The translations under genes and the position numbers were made by a program. Of a DNA stretch of 64,000 nt, positions 49,784-62,658 are shown piece by piece (position 1 is the first letter of the stretch; each line of letters starts with the position of its first letter). The stretch comes from Dehalococcoidia bacterium (GTDB taxonomy: Bacteria > Chloroflexota > Dehalococcoidia > Lucifugimonadales > G958296245). The stretch lies in assembly GCA_965262055.1 (NCBI GenBank), contig CBDHEI010000002.1, positions 1,108,202 through 1,172,201 of the forward strand. The letters are read 5' to 3'. Below the pieces are notes generated by a model. The model searched no databases, had not been told where the DNA came from, and saw only the letters and a program-made list of their open reading frames with translations.

Positions 49784-50407
49784 TTGCAGGACTTGCAGAG
49801 ACAGAACGGAGACCGCCTAGCCGCAGTGTATCTGGACGCAACCGCTCCACGGCTGCTCAAGGCCTTGAACCGCAAGACTTCCATCGGGTGGGGTGATCTG
49901 CCAGGTGTAGTTGGTGGCGAGTGGGATGATGTACTCAGATCCGTGGCCCTCTTGTCCGGGGCCGACCTATGCGAGGCAAGCACAACCGGTCTCAGGCTCA
50001 GTGAGCACGGGGAAAGGTTGCTCGCCGATGGCCCAGACAGCCCTTCACACGATGCCGGCTTGAGCGACGCTCTGCGGGACCTCCGTGAGACAATCGACGA
50101 GGCTCGGGAAGAGGGAACCCCCCTGCCGTCCAATGCGGCGCTAGAAAGCGCGGAGCGCCTGTTGAGGGAAATGTACCGGATCTCCCCTCGCCGGTTCGAG
50201 GTCTATTCCACGCCGGACGGCGAGGTCGCCATCTACGCCCCAAGCTGCGGGAGCTCCGTCCTTATGTTGTGCGACTCGGATGGGGGCGCACTCTGCCTGG
50301 TCAACGTGGACGGCACGCACCGCCGCGCCCGCTATTCGACTACCCGGACGCTTCCCGACGGGTTTGTGCGCGAGGCCCTGGTCGAGTTGGCGCAGCACGA
50401 CGCTTGA
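49784..50407 (+). CDS. hypothetical protein (possible N-terminal winged-helix-like region + unknown C-terminal domain)
   Basis: 207-aa ORF with protein-like composition. TTG starts at 49784 or 49793 follow AGGAG. I recognise no family. Confidence 0.5.
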   Translation: MQDLQRQNGDRLAAVYLDATAPRLLKALNRKTSIGWGDLPGVVGGEWDDVLRSVALLSGADLCEASTTGLRLSEHGERLLADGPDSPSHDAGLSDALRDLRETIDEAREEGTPLPSNAALESAERLLREMYRISPRRFEVYSTPDGEVAIYAPSCGSSVLMLCDSDGGALCLVNVDGTHRRARYSTTRTLPDGFVREALVELAQHDA

Positions 50408-50817
50408 CCCAGTCACCTCCCGCGATCGTTGGGCCATGGGAGGACCTCGAGCGTGGTGTCTTCTCCAGCAGGAATGCAAGTAGGGCTCGGCGCTCCCGTA
50501 CGCCGCATCACGTTTTTCTGACTGAGCCGGGCCAACCCAATATCTCGGTCGATCGGCTGAGCACGGCCCCTCCTTCGGATGCGGCGGCTATCGGCGACAG
50601 GGTGGCCTCGGCCCGCACCGCCACGTTCTACGGATGGGCCGTCGTCACTGTCGGAGGGGCCAGCGCCAATAGCAGGCAGGTAGTTTCCGCCCCTCTAATC
50701 GACAACCCATTTCACGCGAACATCGTCCTGCCTGGACCTGCAGCCGAAGATCGGGAGGAACAGAAGCGGCACGCGCAGGAGCTAGCGGATGCTTCGCGCT
50801 GGCGTGAACGACCATAG
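50404..50817 (+). CDS. hypothetical protein, TTG start overlapping the upstream stop (TTGA)
   Basis: The frame carries ...ISVDRLSTAPPSDAAAIGDRVAS...FYGWAVVTVGGASANSRQVVSAPLIDNPFHANIVLP..., a motif pattern I recall from uncharacterised proteins. There is no ATG, and TTG at 50404 overlaps the TGA of the previous gene. Confidence 0.4.
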   Translation: MTQSPPAIVGPWEDLERGVFSSRNASRARRSRTPHHVFLTEPGQPNISVDRLSTAPPSDAAAIGDRVASARTATFYGWAVVTVGGASANSRQVVSAPLIDNPFHANIVLPGPAAEDREEQKRHAQELADASRWRERP

Positions 50818-50837
50818 GGCGGCCTTGGGCGGCACGT

Positions 50838-51473
50838 CTACGCGTCCCGATTAGCAGCGTCGCGCAGCTCGGCCAGGGCGCGTATGCACCTCGACAGGCT
50901 TGGTGACACCTCTACTGCAGAAGAGGGCTGCCACTGCCCACGTCCCTGTTTGCCGACGAACTCGGACATACGGGACGTGTAGGCGGGGCCCACGGATGCG
51001 CCGCTTCCTGGCCGCGGCAGCATGTCTTCACGAATCGCTCTCCGTCGGGAGCCTCTGGCCAGATTGATGAGCGTTTCCTTGGGATCGTCGAGGTCGTCGA
51101 CGGTGCGGGGAATCCTGCTCCTCGGGACGCCCAAGAACGACGCGATTCCCGCCCGGTCGGCAAGCAGCCAGCTCTCTATCTCGCGGACTGCTACGCGGAA
51201 ACACATGTGCTCAGCCGGGGCCGAAAGCCACTCTGCCCGAAGCGACGGCGCGCATTCGAAGTCGTTATCGAGGTCCACCAGGACTATCCAGGGCGAGAAC
51301 CTCGCAGCCCGGTTGTATCCGTCGATAATGGCTTTCAGATGGGACTTGCCGTTCCTCCCAAACACCCTTCCAACGGATAGTCCGACATCCTCAGCCAGTT
51401 TGCGCAAGACTACTTCGTCGAGGGTCCCTTCGACGGCTCCGGAGACGGCTAACCTGGACTCGCCGGAGTTCAA
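50838..51473 (-). CDS. TOPRIM-like small protein (DUF4276/DUF4435-like)
   Basis: N-terminal ...AVSGAVEGTLDEVVL (conserved Glu) and ...WIVLVDLDNDFE (DxD), then ...REIESWLLAD. The TTG start overlaps the ATPase TGA stop (TTGA). Confidence 0.6.
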   Translation of the reverse strand: MNSGESRLAVSGAVEGTLDEVVLRKLAEDVGLSVGRVFGRNGKSHLKAIIDGYNRAARFSPWIVLVDLDNDFECAPSLRAEWLSAPAEHMCFRVAVREIESWLLADRAGIASFLGVPRSRIPRTVDDLDDPKETLINLARGSRRRAIREDMLPRPGSGASVGPAYTSRMSEFVGKQGRGQWQPSSAVEVSPSLSRCIRALAELRDAANRDA

Positions 51474-52645
51474 AGGTCTGCAAACATCGTCAACTGCTCG
51501 GAATTCTCAGGACGCGTATAGGGAATTGCTGCGTCGGCCATGCTCAGACCTGCCTCGAGCAGTCGTCGTATCTGAAGGTCCCACCCGGCGGTATGGACCT
51601 TGGTGCCCTCGTTGGCCGGTATCAACAGCAGCACCTCATCCATGCCGATGCCTGTGTCCTGGAGCAGGTCGGCCGAATGTGTGCTCATGATGATCTGCCG
51701 GCCGCTCCCCCGCTGCGCACGCGCAATCAACTGTGGGAGGTGTCGTACTACTTCGGGGTGCAGCGAAAGCTCCGGCTCCTCGAGCAGGAGGGGGCCGTCG
51801 CCCTCGATAACCGACCAGAGGAACCCCAGCAGTCGAAGAGTGCCGTCGGACAACTCCCGCTCGCTCTGCCAGGCGCCCTGCGAGCGCCAGTGCTCGTATC
51901 TGCCGCGAAGGTGCGGCGTGCCGCGCTCGTCTCTCCGCAGCTCCAGGTCCTGAAGCTGCGGAACCGCCACCTGGAGGGCCTTTGTTATGCGGCGCAGCCG
52001 GGAACGGAGGGTCCTAGTCTGAGTGCGCGCTAGCTGGTCGAGGAAGTCGCCCCCAAAGGGATCGTTCTCACGGCCGATCGAACGGTCCGGATCACGAACA
52101 AGCTGGGGGACTATGTGCCTATAGCGAACCGAGCCTAGGAAATCGACCAGCTCCCTAAACTCCCTGTTGACGTTTACTTGCTCCAGGTACGTCTGCGACT
52201 TTCTTTGAGGGTCGGCCTCGTCCTCCGCGTTTGGCCTCTGGAAGAGGACCTCGCCGTTGTGTAGGACGGTCTCCTCCTTGATAAACGGGCGGCGGATGTT
52301 GTCCTGGGCAAATCGGAGGTGGTACTCCCAGCGGCCCTCGCTCTCGTCATCGCCTACCACCACGCGAACTCCGATGTCGGGGTAGCGCCGGGCGGCTAGG
52401 GCACGCATCCCGGACACACCGCCACGCTTCCTGACGGCTTCCTGGAACCCGCCGCCGACAGCCGCGATGTCATAGAGGAAGCGGAACGCATCGAGGAGAT
52501 TGGACTTGCCAGATGCGTTGGGGCCGACGAGGAACGTGCGCCGTTGCAGCTCCACGTCGGCGCTCACGAAGTTTCGCCAGTTCTCCAGCAACAGCCCCGT
52601 GAACCGGTACGTCCTTCGGTTGTCCTGCCTCTTGCGACCGGCCAT
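51470..52645 (-). CDS. ABC/SMC-type AAA ATPase (AAA_15/AAA_21-like; AriA/AbiLi/OLD-ATPase-like)
   Basis: Walker A GPNASGKSN, Walker B LLLLEEPELSLHP, H-loop IIMSTHS. Confidence 0.75.
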   Translation of the reverse strand: MAGRKRQDNRRTYRFTGLLLENWRNFVSADVELQRRTFLVGPNASGKSNLLDAFRFLYDIAAVGGGFQEAVRKRGGVSGMRALAARRYPDIGVRVVVGDDESEGRWEYHLRFAQDNIRRPFIKEETVLHNGEVLFQRPNAEDEADPQRKSQTYLEQVNVNREFRELVDFLGSVRYRHIVPQLVRDPDRSIGRENDPFGGDFLDQLARTQTRTLRSRLRRITKALQVAVPQLQDLELRRDERGTPHLRGRYEHWRSQGAWQSERELSDGTLRLLGFLWSVIEGDGPLLLEEPELSLHPEVVRHLPQLIARAQRGSGRQIIMSTHSADLLQDTGIGMDEVLLLIPANEGTKVHTAGWDLQIRRLLEAGLSMADAAIPYTRPENSEQLTMFADL

Positions 52646-52672
52646 CAGAACCTCGCGCGCCTCGTTCCGATT

Positions 52673-54313
52673 CTACACCGTGTCGTCCATGGCGGCCTGG
52701 CGGCCTTCGGGGCGCTGGACGCGCTGGGCGGGCTGGTACATGGACGGGGCGTACGGGATGTCGAACTCGTTGCCGGCGAGAAGCTCGGCGACGGTGCGTA
52801 TCTGCATCCTGGGGTAGTCGCGCTGCCATATGTCCGAGTGGTAGAAGCCGGCGCTGGCGGCCTCGGCGCCCATGGCGCGGGTCGGCTCCTCCAGGGTGAT
52901 GAAGAGGCCCAGGTCGGCCTTCTCGCGCTCGACGGTCCCCTTCAGGTCGCGTATATGGGGCGATGAGACCTTGCCGCTCTTGACCTGCACTATGGCTTTC
53001 CTGGTAGAGCGGCGCGGGCCGTCGATGAAGTGGACTACGCCGTCGATACCCCTGTCTGCGCCCCGGCGCCGGTCCTGCTCACGGGGCATCGCCTCCAGGA
53101 GGGACATGGCCCAGTACTGGAACTGGTAGCGGTCCTGCTCGGCCAGGGCGCGGGCGCCGCCGACGTCCGTGGGCTCGCCGACGACCTCGTAGTCTGTGCC
53201 GGGGTGGAGGTCGAAGGCGGTCCTGAGCCGGCTCTTCATCAGGGCGACGGCAAGGTGGGTGACGTCGATGCCCACCCAGCGGCGCTTCAGGTTCTCGGCG
53301 GCCGCCACGGCGGTGCCGCAGCCGCAGAATGGGTCGAGCACCACGTCGCCCTCGTTGGAGGACGCCTCTATGATGCGCTCCAAGAGGGCCTGCGGCTTCT
53401 GGGTGGGGAAACCTAGACGCTCTGCGTTGGAACCAGATAACGAATATATGTCCGCCCACACATCTTGTATGGGAACCCCACGAGACTCATCCAAATATAG
53501 CTTCCGGCGAGGATATCCAGTCCTCGAATAATACAGCCGGTTTTCTTCATCCAGTCGGTGCATCGTCTCCCGGTTGTATCGCCATGCTCTCACGTGTCCA
53601 TTCCACTCATACACAGGGTTACCTTTCTCGGCACCCCCCGGTCCAGTCAGTGGGGTCGTCGTAAACTTCCTCCCTGTGTCCTCATCGACGTACCTATATG
53701 TGCTCTTGACATACTCCTCGTCCAACGGAGTGAATCCTTGGTGCCACGTGACCGAACCAGTCTTGCCATAAAGCAAGATGATGTCATGCACTCTACCGAA
53801 TCGGGTAGAACCCTGACCGACATCGTTGTGAGCACCATAACGCTTCCACGTAATCTCATTCCGGAAATTATCTGCCCCGAACACTGCGTCCATGAGCAGC
53901 TTGAGGTAGTGGCCGGCCGTCGGGTCACAGTGGAGGTATATGGAGCCGGTGGGATTGAGGACGCGGCGCAGCTCGACGAGGCGGGGCGTCATCATGACGA
54001 GGTAGGCCATCATGGCGTTGCTGCCGATGAACTGGCGAAAGGCGGAGACCATCTCCTTGACGTTTGCGGGCGTGCCGGGGTTGGTGATGATCTCCTGCTC
54101 GTAGGTGCGCTCGGCCTCCTGCGTCCACTCCCAGGTGTCGGTGAAGGCCCTGATCTGGGCGGGGGAGGCCTCGCCGGACTGCTCCTTGAACAGCACGTTG
54201 TAGTTGGCGTTGGAGTTGAAGGGCGGGTCGAGGTAAACGAGGTCGACCGACTCGTCGGGGACGTGCTGCCGGAGGATGTCGAGGTTGTCGCCGTAGTAGA
54301 GGGTGTTGTTCAT
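52673..54313 (-). CDS. beta-class N6A/N4C DNA methyltransferase fused to a C-terminal Mrr-like PD-(D/E)xK domain
   Basis: MNNTLYYGDNLDIL..., motif IV DLVYLDPPF, motif I VVLDPFCGCGTA. The C-terminus ...RGIDGVVHF...AIVQVKSGKVSSPHIRDLKGTV...GLFITLEEPT resembles Mrr_cat. The ORF opens at 54361, but ATG 54313 follows GGGGGTGGAG. Confidence 0.8.
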   Translation of the reverse strand: MNNTLYYGDNLDILRQHVPDESVDLVYLDPPFNSNANYNVLFKEQSGEASPAQIRAFTDTWEWTQEAERTYEQEIITNPGTPANVKEMVSAFRQFIGSNAMMAYLVMMTPRLVELRRVLNPTGSIYLHCDPTAGHYLKLLMDAVFGADNFRNEITWKRYGAHNDVGQGSTRFGRVHDIILLYGKTGSVTWHQGFTPLDEEYVKSTYRYVDEDTGRKFTTTPLTGPGGAEKGNPVYEWNGHVRAWRYNRETMHRLDEENRLYYSRTGYPRRKLYLDESRGVPIQDVWADIYSLSGSNAERLGFPTQKPQALLERIIEASSNEGDVVLDPFCGCGTAVAAAENLKRRWVGIDVTHLAVALMKSRLRTAFDLHPGTDYEVVGEPTDVGGARALAEQDRYQFQYWAMSLLEAMPREQDRRRGADRGIDGVVHFIDGPRRSTRKAIVQVKSGKVSSPHIRDLKGTVEREKADLGLFITLEEPTRAMGAEAASAGFYHSDIWQRDYPRMQIRTVAELLAGNEFDIPYAPSMYQPAQRVQRPEGRQAAMDDTV

Positions 54314-54353
54314 AGCAGCAACTCCACCCCCATTCGGGCATAACCCGCGCCCA

Positions 54354-54614
54354 TCATCCACGCTCCTTGAGGAACGTATCCAAGGCGCCGTCCACGCACA
54401 CGCCGCCCTCGAATGGAGTCCTTGGCTTACGAGGCCGGACCAGGACCCCTCTCCGCTCTAACTCCTGGACCCTCCGCTCCATCATCACTAGTCTCTCCAG
54501 CGGACTGGTTTCTGAGACCTGCCCGCCCTCTCCGACGCTCACGCTGATGCGCAGCGGCTGCAGGCAGTCGTGCCCAACGGACAGTCCCGAGCGAGGCAGG
54601 TTATTCATTGGCAT
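54354..54614 (-). CDS. small hypothetical protein (coiled-coil-like ERLVMMERRVQELERRG)
   Basis: 86-aa ORF immediately upstream of the MTase on the same strand. No family recognised. It could start at the internal MM. Confidence 0.3.
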   Translation of the reverse strand: MPMNNLPRSGLSVGHDCLQPLRISVSVGEGGQVSETSPLERLVMMERRVQELERRGVLVRPRKPRTPFEGGVCVDGALDTFLKERG

Positions 54615-54693
54615 CTTCTTCCCCTACGTCCGCTACTATTGCCAGCCATCCAGGGTCAATCAGGCCCGCTGGCGCATCCGTGGCCACTCATGG

Positions 54694-55233
54694 CTAGCCA
54701 AAGGCTGCGGCGGCCTTTCCCCGCAGCTTGCCTATCTCCTCGACGGCCTCGCGGGCGTCGGGGACGGAGATGTGAGGCTTGATCTCGTTGATTCTCCGGG
54801 CGACCTTGCTGTCTTCCATGCCTGGGTGCTCAGTCTGTATGAGGAACGTTGTAGATAAACGCTCGAGGGAACGCACCACCTCGGTGGATAGCTCCCTGGC
54901 GACGAATTCGACGGCAGCGTCGTATTGCGACACGAGGCCAAGGTCGAGCTCGCCCCGCGGCCCAAGGATAACCGAGGGGCCGTAAGGATAGCGGGGCTCA
55001 ACGTCCAACTGGAAGCGGGCACCCATGACGGCCATCTCGCGCTGCAAGTCAAAGCTGTACGGGCCGTGCTTGTAGAGTATGAAGTCATAGCCCGCCGGGA
55101 CCTTCATCAGATTCTGGAGGAAGTAGAGGCACTTCTGTATATGCGTCTCGCCCGTCCAACTCCCCGCGCCTCGCATCGCCTTCACCAAGCGGCAGACGAG
55201 GGCCCTGCGCTCCTTCTGCGTCATCGGCTCCAT
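54694..55233 (-). CDS. YwgA-like / SocA (Panacea, DUF4065)-like protein
   Basis: ETHIQKCLYFLQNLMKVPAGYDFILYKHGPYSFDLQREM matches the QK.LYF....P....F..Y.(H/Y)GP(Y)S..L core. ATG 55233 follows AGGAGG and lies 4 nt after the HD gene stop. Confidence 0.6.
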   Translation of the reverse strand: MEPMTQKERRALVCRLVKAMRGAGSWTGETHIQKCLYFLQNLMKVPAGYDFILYKHGPYSFDLQREMAVMGARFQLDVEPRYPYGPSVILGPRGELDLGLVSQYDAAVEFVARELSTEVVRSLERLSTTFLIQTEHPGMEDSKVARRINEIKPHISVPDAREAVEEIGKLRGKAAAAFG

Positions 55234-55237
55234 GGGG

Positions 55238-56587
55238 TCACCCTCCTGTGTCCTGGGACAAGATGTGTCCCCTATTTTCTCCAAACCACCTCAAGGCATC
55301 CTCATATATCTCTGGGTCGATGAGGACGACACCGGTGTCCACGATGGGAATCTGGCGCAGAACATTCGAGGCCGCGTGGGAAGATACCACCTCTCCCTCC
55401 AAACTGCGAACAGGGAAGTGGGGGACCTGCCTACTCTGAGTGTACTCGGCCATGTGGACCTTGTCCTTGCCATACTTCTCGCCGCAGGCCTGAATCGCAG
55501 CGGTGAGAGGGTCTCCGTATTGGGCTTTGTCCTCGTGCGTTGGGCTGTACAGCCGTCGAAAGTGGTGCCTGTTCACAATCCTGTACGCAGCTTCATGCCC
55601 GGGGGCGGATGGGCTTTGGGCAGCCTGCGATATGGCGTTAAGCACTTCGTTGTCGTTAAGCCGCTGGTGCATAACCGTATCCGTCGAGAAGCGGCCACAC
55701 GGCAGCCAGGCCTGTAGGAATTGTTGAAGGTGAAAGTCGTAGGCCAGCCTTACGCGGTGGTAGTAGACCTGCATGAACATGAAGTATCGCGCTAGGAGCA
55801 TGGCTTCGGCAGCGTGAATCCCGCCACCTTCTACGCCCAAGGCCGGTTCGTCAGCCCGTTCGCTGGATGGCAATACCCTGATGGTATCTACCAATCTGTA
55901 ATGGTCGAACTTGCCATAGGCAACTCCGGCGTGGTGTGAGTCCCTCAACAGATAATCCATCCGGTCGACGCCCAAAGTGTCACTGATGATGATCTCCGAC
56001 AGCAACGCCTCCAAGTTGGAGAATCTGGTGTCCCTCATCTTCTCCGGGCCCACGGCGATTTTCGCGACGTCCTCGGGATCGAGGAGCGGCCGCATGGTTC
56101 GCCAGACATCCTTCATTTCGTCGCCCCGAATCAATTCAGCGGTGATCCGCTCGTGGTTCCACCCGTTGGGTAGCAGCTCCTTCTCGGCGGCGTGTGAGAA
56201 TGGGAGGTGGCCGATGTCGTGGCACAGGGCAGCCATCCTCAGCACCTTGCGCCAGTAGTCCCTGCTGTCACTTCTTGTTATCTCGGGGACAACCTCCCTG
56301 ACCGATGGGTGAATGTTGTGGTCGGCCGTAACGACGTCGAAGACTCTCCCCGCTAGCTCCATCACCCCCAGGCTGTGCTCGAAGCGCTTGTGAGTCGCGC
56401 CAGGGTAGACCAAGTACGACATCGCCAACTGGTGGACGTGCCTCAACCTCTGGACCGGGCCTGAGTTGAGGACCCGTCTCTCGTCACTGTCCAACCTGAC
56501 GAAGTCGTGGATGGGATCCCGTATCTCGTGATACTGTTTCAAGCTGCCCCCTACGGCTTCACGCGGCATAAGGCCTGACGAAGGCAA
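55238..56587 (-). CDS. SAMHD1/dGTPase-like HD-domain phosphohydrolase
   Basis: IRDPIHDFV...QRLRHVHQL...THKRFEHSLGV...AALCHDIGHLPFSHAAE...GVDRMDYLLRDSHHAGV is the dNTP triphosphohydrolase-type HD signature. Confidence 0.8.
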   Translation of the reverse strand: MPSSGLMPREAVGGSLKQYHEIRDPIHDFVRLDSDERRVLNSGPVQRLRHVHQLAMSYLVYPGATHKRFEHSLGVMELAGRVFDVVTADHNIHPSVREVVPEITRSDSRDYWRKVLRMAALCHDIGHLPFSHAAEKELLPNGWNHERITAELIRGDEMKDVWRTMRPLLDPEDVAKIAVGPEKMRDTRFSNLEALLSEIIISDTLGVDRMDYLLRDSHHAGVAYGKFDHYRLVDTIRVLPSSERADEPALGVEGGGIHAAEAMLLARYFMFMQVYYHRVRLAYDFHLQQFLQAWLPCGRFSTDTVMHQRLNDNEVLNAISQAAQSPSAPGHEAAYRIVNRHHFRRLYSPTHEDKAQYGDPLTAAIQACGEKYGKDKVHMAEYTQSRQVPHFPVRSLEGEVVSSHAASNVLRQIPIVDTGVVLIDPEIYEDALRWFGENRGHILSQDTGG

Positions 56588-56697
56588 TCATAGCACATGC
56601 GTTCTCTGCATTGCAAGCATGCCTCAGCAGGGCTCAGTCCACGCGAGGCGGGACCCCTTGCGGCATGGACACTCTGCCGGCGCGTGGGGACGGCGTG

Positions 56698-57138
56698 TCA
56701 GGACTGGATCAACCCCTCCTGGGGCTGCGTCCAGGGCAGGTTGTAGACGGACGCAAACTGCGGGGCGCGCAGTATCGGCATCTCTCCGAAGGGCACGTCA
56801 ATGACCACCGGCGCTTCTCGCTCCAGGGCCAGCGGGATCAGGGTCTCCAGCTCCAGCGGGTCGTCCGCCCTCATGCCTACGGCGCCAAACGACTCGGCGA
56901 ACTTGACGAAGTCCGGGTTGTGCAGGTCGGTCCCGTACGCTCCCGGTTTCCCCGACGCCCGAGCATAACCGTCGGCCATGTAGGTCGTGGCCTGCTCATT
57001 CCGGGTCGTGACCATGCGGATGCCCGGCTCGTCGCGCAGCGCGGCGACGATCCCGTACATCTGTATGCCGGGGATCCCGAATACGACCTCGACGCCCTCC
57101 CTTACGAGCGACTTGACCAGGGCTTCGCCGCCACTCAT
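56698..57138 (-). pseudogene. thiamine-diphosphate enzyme (acetolactate-synthase-like) remnant with a large in-frame internal deletion
   Basis: About 67 N-terminal residues (MSGGEALVKSLVREGVEVVFGIPG...ADGYARASGKPGA) are joined directly to the extreme C-terminus (NPDFVKFAESFGAVGMRADDP...APVVIDVP). Roughly 400 aa of middle and PP domains are missing. Confidence 0.7.
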
Positions 57139-60923: not shown

Positions 60924-62658
60924 CTAGATACCGTAGGAGTAAGGCCATACCCGCGCAGCCACCTGACAGAGTCGTCTGGCCCGCTCCACGATCGCCGCTT
61001 CGTCCCATACATCGAGGGCGTCGTCAAGCAGAGTCTTGTTGAGGAACAGGGTAGTGTGTTCGTTCAGCGTCGCTCGCTTTTCCGCCCAAGACGCATTGGA
61101 TAGGGCCGAGTTGAGGCGGTTATTCACGAGGGTCAGATTGCCTATTGAGTGAATGATCCGGTCCCGGTGTTCGGCTTCTTCAGCCTCGTCTTCCCCAACT
61201 CCGTTCAGCGGCCATTTGTCTCGCCACTGCCGGGGCATGGTGTGCTCGATTGTTAGGCCATGTGGCACAGACTGGGATTCCGACTTGTCAGTCCGCAACT
61301 CTTGCTCTATCCCTTCCAGAACGATTCGGAGCCGTCCTCGGGTCAGCAGCCTGTACAGGGGAAGGTTAACGAACGCGTTTTCTATCTGCCGGTCGTTCGG
61401 CCACAGGCCCACATCAGAGTCCTGGTCTCGAAGGAACTTAACCACTGCGTCACCGGCGTGTTCCGCTCCTATCTCCTCCAGGCGCTCCACCAAGCTAATG
61501 AAGAGCCGATTGTAGCCTCTCGTGGTCATGCGGCAGACCATCCGCCGCAACTGGTGGCTTTCTAGTGCGCGAAGTCCCTTACTCATTTGTTCTTCGGGCA
61601 CCTCTGACGAAAGCAGCCACAACAACACCGGAGTCATAGCGCCCGCCTGCATCACTCCCCATCGTTACAGAAACGTGGCCATATCGGGATCAGAGGCTTC
61701 TTCCAGCATACGATAAGACTTCCCGGTGCTGCCAATATCGTCTGCGATGATTTCAATCGGTTCGTCCCTATCCCCATAGTAGCGTACGCATGACAAGCCA
61801 ATAATTCAAGAAAACGTCGATGCGCGGACGGTAGAGCCTCCCCTGTCGTATCTCGCGTCTCCACCAACTATCGTTGAAGCCCCACAGCCGAGCTACCCCT
61901 TCGGAGTTACTTGTGGCGCCTGCCTTCGCTGCCTAGAATAGAACCATATTTTTGATCAGGTCCGACTGAAGCAATGGCGTCCCGCGTGCGTTGAGCGTCT
62001 CGAAGATGACATGAGGGTCATCTGACTGATCGAGATCAATCACAACCAGTTCCAAGAGATTTGATACGGTTTGCCCAAGTGCTTCCGCTCCTCGCGATTC
62101 ATTCTCCTCCGAATTCTTATCGAGCCACTGACGGATCTGGAGCTTGAAGAATTCATGAGCCCGAACGATAAGTGACTCCTTGGACTCTTCCGAAGACAGG
62201 TCGTTGTGCATCGTGTTGCGGAAGGCCGCCTGGTCGGCCATTGTGGGCCAGACCTTAAAGGCGTGATCGTCGTTATCGCCACGGAACGCCTCATGGTTCA
62301 GCACCAGAAGCTCAAGACGCTTCGCCGCAGTGTCAATCCCGCGTCGCTCGAACACTTCTTGGACTGCGTCTAGGAGCAATTGTAGCGTGGTCAACCGCTG
62401 CTGTCCATCGACTACGAGTCGCGTCATGAGCATCGGAGTCGGAACGTGTTGCTGCTGGAGAACTACAGCTCCAAGAAAGTGAGTTATAGACTGGCTCCCC
62501 GGCTTTTCTAGGTAGTGCTCTGCTGTGTTCTGCACGTCCTCCCAGAGCGAGTCCCATTGCCTCTCTTGGTTCCAGATGTATGGGCGCTGGAACAATGGAA
62601 TCTCGTAGCGTCCGGGGCTGGCGAACAATTTTTGCAGATTCACGATATTGACGTCCAT
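60924..62658 (-). pseudogene. GmrSD-type (DUF262 + DUF1524) type IV restriction enzyme, disrupted
   Basis: The N-terminal ORF has YEIPLFQRPYIWN (DUF262). The C-terminal ORF has LTIEHTMPRQ...IHSIGNLTLVNNRLNSALSN (DUF1524 His-Me). The 277-bp gap reads through in the conserved sequence ...WWRREIRQGRLYRPRIDVFLNYWLVM... only if TAG 61930-61932, a frameshift and a TAA are ignored. Confidence 0.75.

Follow-up and report, generated by a model that had tools for sequence, protein, structure and literature searches.

What do two overlapping genes in the genome of a Dehalococcoidia bacterium encode, and could they protect their host against phage? The genes lie on the minus strand of a 64,000-nucleotide (nt) stretch of contig CBDHEI010000002.1 (hereafter the window) and specify an ABC ATPase of 391 amino acids (aa) followed by a protein of 211 aa. 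[quoted passage not shown] Our comparisons support the first description; the second gives way to a simpler answer. Along their full length both proteins fit the models of a defence candidate that has been catalogued before, HEC-01, so that by sequence the pair is clearly a member of that family. We put at about 0.7 the probability that the pair is a self-contained HEC-01 operon in a variable defence island of a Dehalococcoidia-like genome, that the module has been spread by horizontal transfer, and that it would act against phage as an ATP-controlled, metal-dependent nuclease module.

In HEC-01, or 'Hma-embedded candidate 01', a Toprim-like protein accompanies an ABC ATPase; the two occur inside Hma (helicase, methylase, ATPase) systems and also away from them, and the second protein, HEC-01B, is reported to resemble the Toprim domain of BpOLD and to keep the metal-binding site (Payne et al., 2024, bioRxiv 10.1101/2024.01.29.577857). 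The ATPase of the window matches the PADLOC model HEC-01A (PDLC04180) with an E-value of 7.1e-153 and 507 bits, its residues 14–387 aligning with positions 2–380 of the 382 in the model. The small protein matches HEC-01B (PDLC04194) with an E-value of 4.5e-63 and 211 bits (residues 10–206 on positions 6–200 of 204). The two proteins stand in the same order as in HEC-01 and are adjacent and co-directional, as expected of that family. In public sources these proteins carry just the names 'hypothetical protein' or 'predicted ATPase'. The pair is an ordinary new HEC-01 member and a cousin of PARIS, with no new architecture.

Both ORFs were as the sequence-only reading had given them, and the ORF list and the sequence confirm that they overlap at TTGA, an arrangement that suggests translational coupling of the ATPase and the small gene. 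We scanned one genome per species and obtained 80 loci from many phyla, including Acidobacteria, Planctomycetes, Chloroflexi, Deltaproteobacteria and others. An ATPase homologue (56–92% identity) lies immediately upstream on the same strand in 79 of these, and the sole exception is truncated by a contig end. From ATPase stop to small-gene start the commonest spacing is −4 nt (21 of 75 loci) and the maximum is +9 nt. Both genes are under purifying selection: compared with four diverged Dehalococcoidia relatives, the ratio of nonsynonymous to synonymous substitution rates (dN/dS) is 0.09–0.10 for the ATPase and 0.17–0.20 for the small gene. Because of the pairing in 79 of 80 loci, the tight spacing and the low dN/dS, we take the pair to be an inseparable, selected and horizontally spread unit. 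That neither ORF is due to chance is confirmed by the Pfam match, the homologues, the conserved acidic residues and the low dN/dS. At one related locus (L003, 8829-10636) the small gene is nearly identical to the copy at 50838-52645 of the window (synonymous divergence, dS, 0.019) and the neighbouring ATPase has diverged (93% identity, dS 0.36), a mosaic that points to recombination between strains within the module.

The ATPase carries the full set of ABC motifs (Walker A, Q-loop, signature, Walker B, D-loop and H-loop), each of them invariant or nearly so among 32 homologues. In Walker A, G41, P42, N43, G46, K47 and S48 are invariant. The probable Q-loop glutamine, Q181, follows a strand at residues 174–177 in the AlphaFold2 model. 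The sequence-only reading had named neither the signature motif nor the Q-loop. The motifs quoted in the sequence-only reading, GPNASGKSN (41–49) and MSTHS (H323) in the ATPase and VEGTLDE (E15, D19, E20) and DLDND in the small protein, are all present in the translations; Walker B alone had been misread, as LLLLEE, and the stretch in fact reads PLLLEEPELSLHP, with three leucines (G-P-L-L-L-E-E-P-E-L-S-L-H-P). Conservation also reaches beyond the catalytic motifs. The loop at residues 181–202 is nearly invariant in the 32 homologues, and residues 179–198 have a predicted local distance difference test score (pLDDT) under 50 in the model, which has a pLDDT of 78.8 overall. Residues 179–202 read VPQLVRDPDRSxGRxNDPFGGDFL with little variation, and a C-terminal tail (residues 374–389, IPxTRPxxxEQLxLF) is conserved as well; speculatively, the loop and the tail may be sites of contact with the partner or the substrate.

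PADLOC, NCBIfam and Foldseek agree in supporting a defence-type ABC ATPase, as the sequence-only reading had proposed in preference to a transport or repair protein. The protein matches Pfam AAA_21 (4e-38) and AAA_15 (5e-15), the two families anticipated for it, and its scores with the next-best named systems in PADLOC are far lower than with HEC-01A (132 bits with AriA/AAA_21, 82 with AbiLi, 65 with mad3, 55 with Old and 53 with GajA). The NCBIfam repair and transport models fall far under their cut-offs (RecF 30 bits vs 172, Rad50 22 vs 1000). A Foldseek search of the model against the PDB returned 154 matches at E≤1e-3; the top 50 are all ABC heads, led by PtuA (of Septu and retron systems), Rad50 and SMC heads, and the predicted structure lacks a coiled-coil insert of the Rad50/SMC type. 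For its N-terminus the nearest solved sequence is GajA (8sm3, E=1e-5); the C-terminal part comes closest to AriA (8ux9, E=5.6e-5), to which phmmer aligned only residues 256–327.

For the small protein, a word-indexed search found 1383 homologues and an exhaustive search 2562 cluster representatives at 50% identity, 1138 of them with E≤1e-30. The best 150 relatives are mostly about 190–220 aa long, with some shorter fragments and some longer forms. The sequence-only reading had suspected DUF4276 rather than DUF4435, and the family bears this out. DUF4276 matched all of 42 relatives at E≤1 (best 3.6e-8) and 130 of 150 relatives at E≤0.1 (best 1.5e-9), whereas DUF4435 gave no Pfam match in the small protein, in the 42 relatives at E≤1 or in the 150 at E≤0.1. 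OLD-like_TOPRIM appeared weakly, in 3 of the 42 (best 0.046) and 14 of the 150 (best 0.0022) at the same respective thresholds. No NCBIfam model, Mad4 among them, matches the small protein. Judged by these profile comparisons, it belongs to a distinct, divergent DUF4276 subfamily with a conserved C-terminal half.

Its acidic residues are candidates for a catalytic site. E15, D19, D67, E100 and D106 are invariant in the 42 relatives, in which E20 is at least 90% conserved; among the 150 more diverse relatives, D67 is the sole invariant column, and E15, D19, E100 and D106 are at least 90% conserved. The acidic residues of DLDND are D67, D69 and D71, and D69 is D or N in relatives. In the AlphaFold2 model (pLDDT 88.9), a core at residues 9–105 is predicted to run beta-alpha-beta-alpha-beta-alpha-beta, with strands at 9–14, 33–39, 62–67 and 90–95 and a helix at 17–29 after strand 1, and is followed by a helical C-terminal half. 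As modelled, the positions of E15, just behind strand 1, and of D67xD69, closing strand 3, fit the Toprim pattern in the succession of strands along the chain. DUF4276 is described as a Toprim-superfamily nuclease domain and is the domain of Mad4 in the MADS system (PMC12065111). We assign the small protein to Toprim on its DUF4276 membership, the placement of its motifs and the literature.

The surroundings of the pair in its relatives bear on the family assignment as well. Pfam profiling of co-directional neighbours at 79 loci found a SNF2/ResIII/Helicase_C and NOV_C helicase upstream in 14–17 loci and DUF1156 downstream in 9, and a tblastn survey with representatives placed at least 20 of the 79 between a SNF2/NOV_C helicase and a DUF1156 methylase. 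These flanks reproduce the Hma embedding behind the name HEC-01: distant homologues of the window pair sit between the helicase and the methylase of Hma. The copy in the window differs in lying outside any Hma system: it occupies a defence island of Dehalococcoidia, where a xanthine-dehydrogenase-like operon, an HD protein and a gene for a methyltransferase-Mrr fusion adjoin it. Embedding in Hma gave HEC-01 its name and is no requirement; the candidates were chosen for occurring outside Hma too. The window copy also falls in a lineage subclade, with small proteins 71–100% identical within Dehalococcoidia and at most 59% identical to others. A search of plasmids with the small protein gave one weak match, to a Ralstonia megaplasmid, and a search of phage records gave none; with these results we rejected a phage-satellite lifestyle of the kind known for PARIS.

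How might such a module work? The mechanism that we propose is built on analogy with PARIS, OLD and Gabija, and PARIS would be the best mechanistic template: there AriA, an ATP-dependent sensor of the trigger, releases AriB, which cleaves tRNA-Lys. Translational coupling would probably fix the ratio in which the two proteins are made, and they would probably assemble into a complex. The ATPase would sense a cue of infection using ATP binding and hydrolysis (K47, E290, H323) and would hold or release its small partner accordingly. The partner would be a Mg2+-dependent nuclease acting through E15 and D67/D69, possibly with D19, E20, E100 and D106, and would cut phage or host nucleic acid (DNA or tRNA), halting the infection. 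The pair's defence-like neighbours are in keeping with an immune role: the methyltransferase-Mrr fusion, the HD protein, GmrSD genes and, in relatives, toxin-antitoxin pairs.

Several results weigh against this interpretation. Complex formation and sensing by the ATPase are proposed purely by analogy, and no HEC-01B is so far known to have nuclease activity. The small protein itself scores 18.7 bits with Pfam DUF4276 (E=0.0021), under the gathering threshold of 30.2. Foldseek of its model against the PDB and BFVD gave no match at E≤1e-3; the top matches are generic Rossmann-like folds, and the match of highest probability (0.63, non-significant) is to an RloB-like phage protein. Neither phmmer nor a family profile found anything for it among PDB sequences, and in hhalign comparisons of family alignments with P2 Old the probability stayed under 1%; AVEG fell on the LLVEG motif of P2 Old in the top local alignment, which is not evidence. 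Neither structure nor profile comparison with solved Toprim proteins reached significance, so the Toprim nature claimed in the sequence-only reading stands as far as motif placement, DUF4276 and the literature carry it and is left without backing from solved structures. Finally, the HEC-01 representative of Payne et al. protected E. coli from none of the phages tried (10.1101/2024.01.29.577857), and for that reason the defence role of the family is not firmly established. A cold-seep representative is reported to have protected E. coli B from one or more of T4, T5 and T7 (10.1101/2024.09.26.614923).

Might the pair instead be a variant of PARIS (AriA/AriB) or AbiL proper, sensing anti-restriction proteins and freeing an AriB-like nuclease that cleaves tRNA? 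The pair shares their gene order and domain logic: a small Toprim-like protein follows an AAA_15/AAA_21 ABC ATPase in a tight two-gene operon, and a paper on the structure of PARIS groups AbiL and MADS3-4 with the AAA15/21 ATPase and Toprim systems (PMC11464382). The PADLOC models AriA (PDLC02980, 8.7e-39) and AbiLi (1e-23, partial) both match the ATPase, and AriA is among its nearest solved sequences. The AriA match, however, joins residues 37–328 to positions 2–303 of 304, the coordinates of generic Pfam AAA_21, and taken together the AriA matches of PADLOC fall on the coordinates of Pfam AAA_21 and AAA_15; AriA is outside the top 50 structural matches; and the ATPase has 391 aa vs 464 in the solved AriA chain. 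The partner differs too, being a DUF4276 protein of 211 aa where AriB is a DUF4435 protein of about 300 aa (~35 kDa). AriB/DUF4435 is matched neither by the small protein of the window nor by any of the 192 relatives scanned, and the small protein has no PADLOC match to the RloB-like AbiLii and none to AriB at E≤0.1. Viral genomes often encode PARIS, whereas this family is missing from phage records. The resemblance that the sequence-only reading saw does not extend to identity, which we regard as very improbable. Other relatives by architecture diverge elsewhere. OLD and Gabija GajA have the same two catalytic modules, ABC ATPase and Toprim, fused there and in separate ORFs here; the Old and GajA PADLOC models match only short segments of the ATPase, and no GajB helicase accompanies the window pair. 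PtuA of Septu and of retron systems provides the best structural matches to the ATPase (9l7p, 9e90 and 8eea, E of about 1e-10 to 1e-11), yet at 14–18% sequence identity and with the HNH nuclease PtuB as partner rather than a Toprim/DUF4276 protein. The Mad3/Mad4 pair of MADS is alike in joining an AAA_15/21 ABC ATPase to DUF4276 and in its tie to DNA methylation genes; the MAD3 model NF047739 gives the window ATPase 64 bits vs a cut-off of 420, and no other MADS component was matched among seven ORFs scanned around the pair. In outline the pair resembles PARIS, OLD and MADS3-4, yet by its profile matches and its unfused genes it would belong to none of PARIS, AbiL, OLD, MADS and Gabija.

The methyltransferase-Mrr gene next door raises another reading, in which it and the HEC-01 pair form a three-gene, methylation-linked immune unit in Dehalococcoidia, the methylase marking self and the pair attacking unmarked DNA. 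Its stop precedes the start of the co-directional ATPase gene by 27 nt, the trio is retained in seven of nine Dehalococcoidia loci, including two (L007 and L009) whose flanks are unlike those of the window, and elsewhere the pair often sits beside the Hma methylase. The validated MADS system likewise links methylation to a DUF4276 protein, Mad4, and to the ATPase Mad3, although the score with the Mad3 equivalog model falls far below the cut-off, as given above. Yet the gene is missing beside the pair in L008, in L006 (where the pair adjoins a phage portal gene) and at every one of the 76 more distant loci, and genes of a defence island can be expected to lie side by side by chance. Two loci, L002 and L003, have the methyltransferase called as two ORFs beside an intact pair, a dangerous state for true restriction, though the split may be either a frameshift or an error of long-read assembly. 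We treat the gene as a lineage-specific neighbour rather than a required part of the module, and think the three-gene unit unlikely. A role outside immunity seems to us similarly doubtful. The pair would then be a selfish, addiction-type module or a RecF/Rad50-like repair or maintenance factor travelling with mobile DNA, which would fit the published test without protection, the toxin-antitoxin pairs that often adjoin HEC-01 loci and the Pfam description of AAA_21 as a putative AbiEii type IV toxin-antitoxin domain, and Rad50 and SMC heads are indeed among the structural neighbours of the ATPase. Set against this are the low repair and transport scores, the missing coiled-coil insert in a protein of only 391 aa, the patchy spread over many phyla with repeated embedding in Hma defence systems, and the protection reported by the second study.

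We therefore return to a self-contained HEC-01 operon as the preferred reading, and Table 1 lists its features together with those of the surrounding genes.

Table 1. Positions of the HEC-01 pair, its motifs and its neighbours in the window.
Feature	Coordinates	Strand	Remarks
391-aa ABC ATPase, HEC-01A-type	51470..52645	minus	ATG start; ORF list
211-aa small protein, HEC-01B-type, divergent DUF4276	50838..51473	minus	TTG start; ORF list
4-nt overlap TTGA (small-gene TTG start, ATPase TGA stop)	51470..51473	minus	plus strand reads tcaa
Walker A/P-loop GPNASGKS, residues 41–48, K47	52502..52525	minus	read from sequence
Probable Q-loop glutamine Q181	52103..52105	minus	Q181 invariant in 32 homologues
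ABC signature LSDGT, residues 265–269	51839..51853	minus	S266, D267, G268, T269 invariant in 32 homologues
Walker B PLLLEE, residues 285–290, catalytic E290, then D-loop SLH	51776..51793	minus	284–292 invariant in 32 homologues
H-loop H323 (MSTHS)	51677..51679	minus	S321, T322 invariant, H323 ≥90%, in 32 homologues
Candidate Toprim glutamate E15 with D19, E20 (AVEGTLDE)	51414..51431	minus	right after beta-strand 1
Candidate DxD, D67-L68-D69	51267..51275	minus	end of beta-strand 3
Conserved acidic E100 and D106 (VREIESWLLAD)	51156..51176	minus	after beta-strand 4
N6_N4 DNA methyltransferase with C-terminal Mrr_cat/NA-iREase1 fusion	52673..54361	minus	N6_N4_Mtase 7.6e-43, Mrr_cat 3.5e-12
86-aa Phd/YefM-like ORF	54354-54614	minus	upstream of methyltransferase
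196-aa protein and HD/HD_assoc_2 protein (449 aa), overlapping	54694-56587	minus	upstream of methyltransferase
146-aa ORF, TPP_enzyme_N and TPP_enzyme_C	56698-57138	minus	
GmrSD_C ORF	60924..61655	minus	2.8e-26
GmrSD_N ORF	61933..62658	minus	1.1e-36
207-aa protein	49784-50407	plus	convergent to the pair

In the window, the xanthine-dehydrogenase-like operon lies on one side of the pair and what remains of a TPP-enzyme gene on the other, and the pair falls in a patch of slightly lower G+C. Close Dehalococcoidia relatives carry it at the same chromosomal site with variable neighbours (a PIN-Phd toxin-antitoxin pair, MerR/DUF433 genes, a transposase), the pattern of a defence-island hot spot. The window was found to hold no tRNA genes, which gives no ground for proposing a tRNA-linked integration site, and a scan of 50300-56800 for promoters and terminators gave no more sites than chance.

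The true start of the methyltransferase-Mrr gene is probably the ATG at 54313 (MNNTLYYGDN...), and its C-terminal domain matches Mrr_cat and NA-iREase1 ('inactive REase'). The 86-aa ORF upstream of it corresponds to just the last ~63 residues of a Phd/YefM-type antitoxin and looks like a remnant without its toxin. In relatives the Phd antitoxin is intact, paired with a PIN toxin and adjoining the HEC-01 module (L006 7977-8635; L007 5146-5804; L008 8536-8817). We considered the Phd-like ORF as a conserved component of the module and rejected it: its counterpart in relatives serves as antitoxin in an ordinary Phd-PIN pair, and the window retains no more than the C-terminal half.

Further upstream on the same strand lie the HD protein and its 196-aa partner, which L002, L004 and L005 have kept as a pair and which may represent another candidate defence system of two genes; the 196-aa protein has a weak likeness to the middle of DarG and to PADLOC PDC-M19A. 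In the 146-aa ORF, the first 67 residues of TPP_enzyme_N run straight into the end of TPP_enzyme_C. Because L002–L004 have an intact 559-aa TPP-enzyme gene at its position, we read it as a remnant of an internal deletion at the edge of the island. The GmrSD_C and GmrSD_N domains, in separate ORFs about 9 kb from the HEC-01 pair and in a patch of low G+C (0.54 vs ~0.66), are a split or disrupted type IV restriction gene. On the other side of the pair, the 207-aa protein has no Pfam, PADLOC or NCBIfam match; it is 80–96% identical in the five relatives that share the site (L001–L005) and absent at the other loci.

For the family, the locus adds one more environmental example, from Dehalococcoidia, of a widespread defence candidate that comprises about 2,500 sequence clusters at 50% identity. 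A routine PADLOC run would annotate it, and no current view is changed. It does place HEC-01 beside methylases in two unrelated settings, the Hma systems and the methyltransferase-Mrr fusion. If the three-gene unit were true, it would be a compact analogue of Hma and MADS, with the ATPase and the DUF4276 nuclease as its restriction arm, and would explain both the frequent methylase neighbours and the failure of HEC-01 alone in one heterologous test. Our survey could guide the choice of constructs for finding the substrate of HEC-01B and the trigger of HEC-01A.

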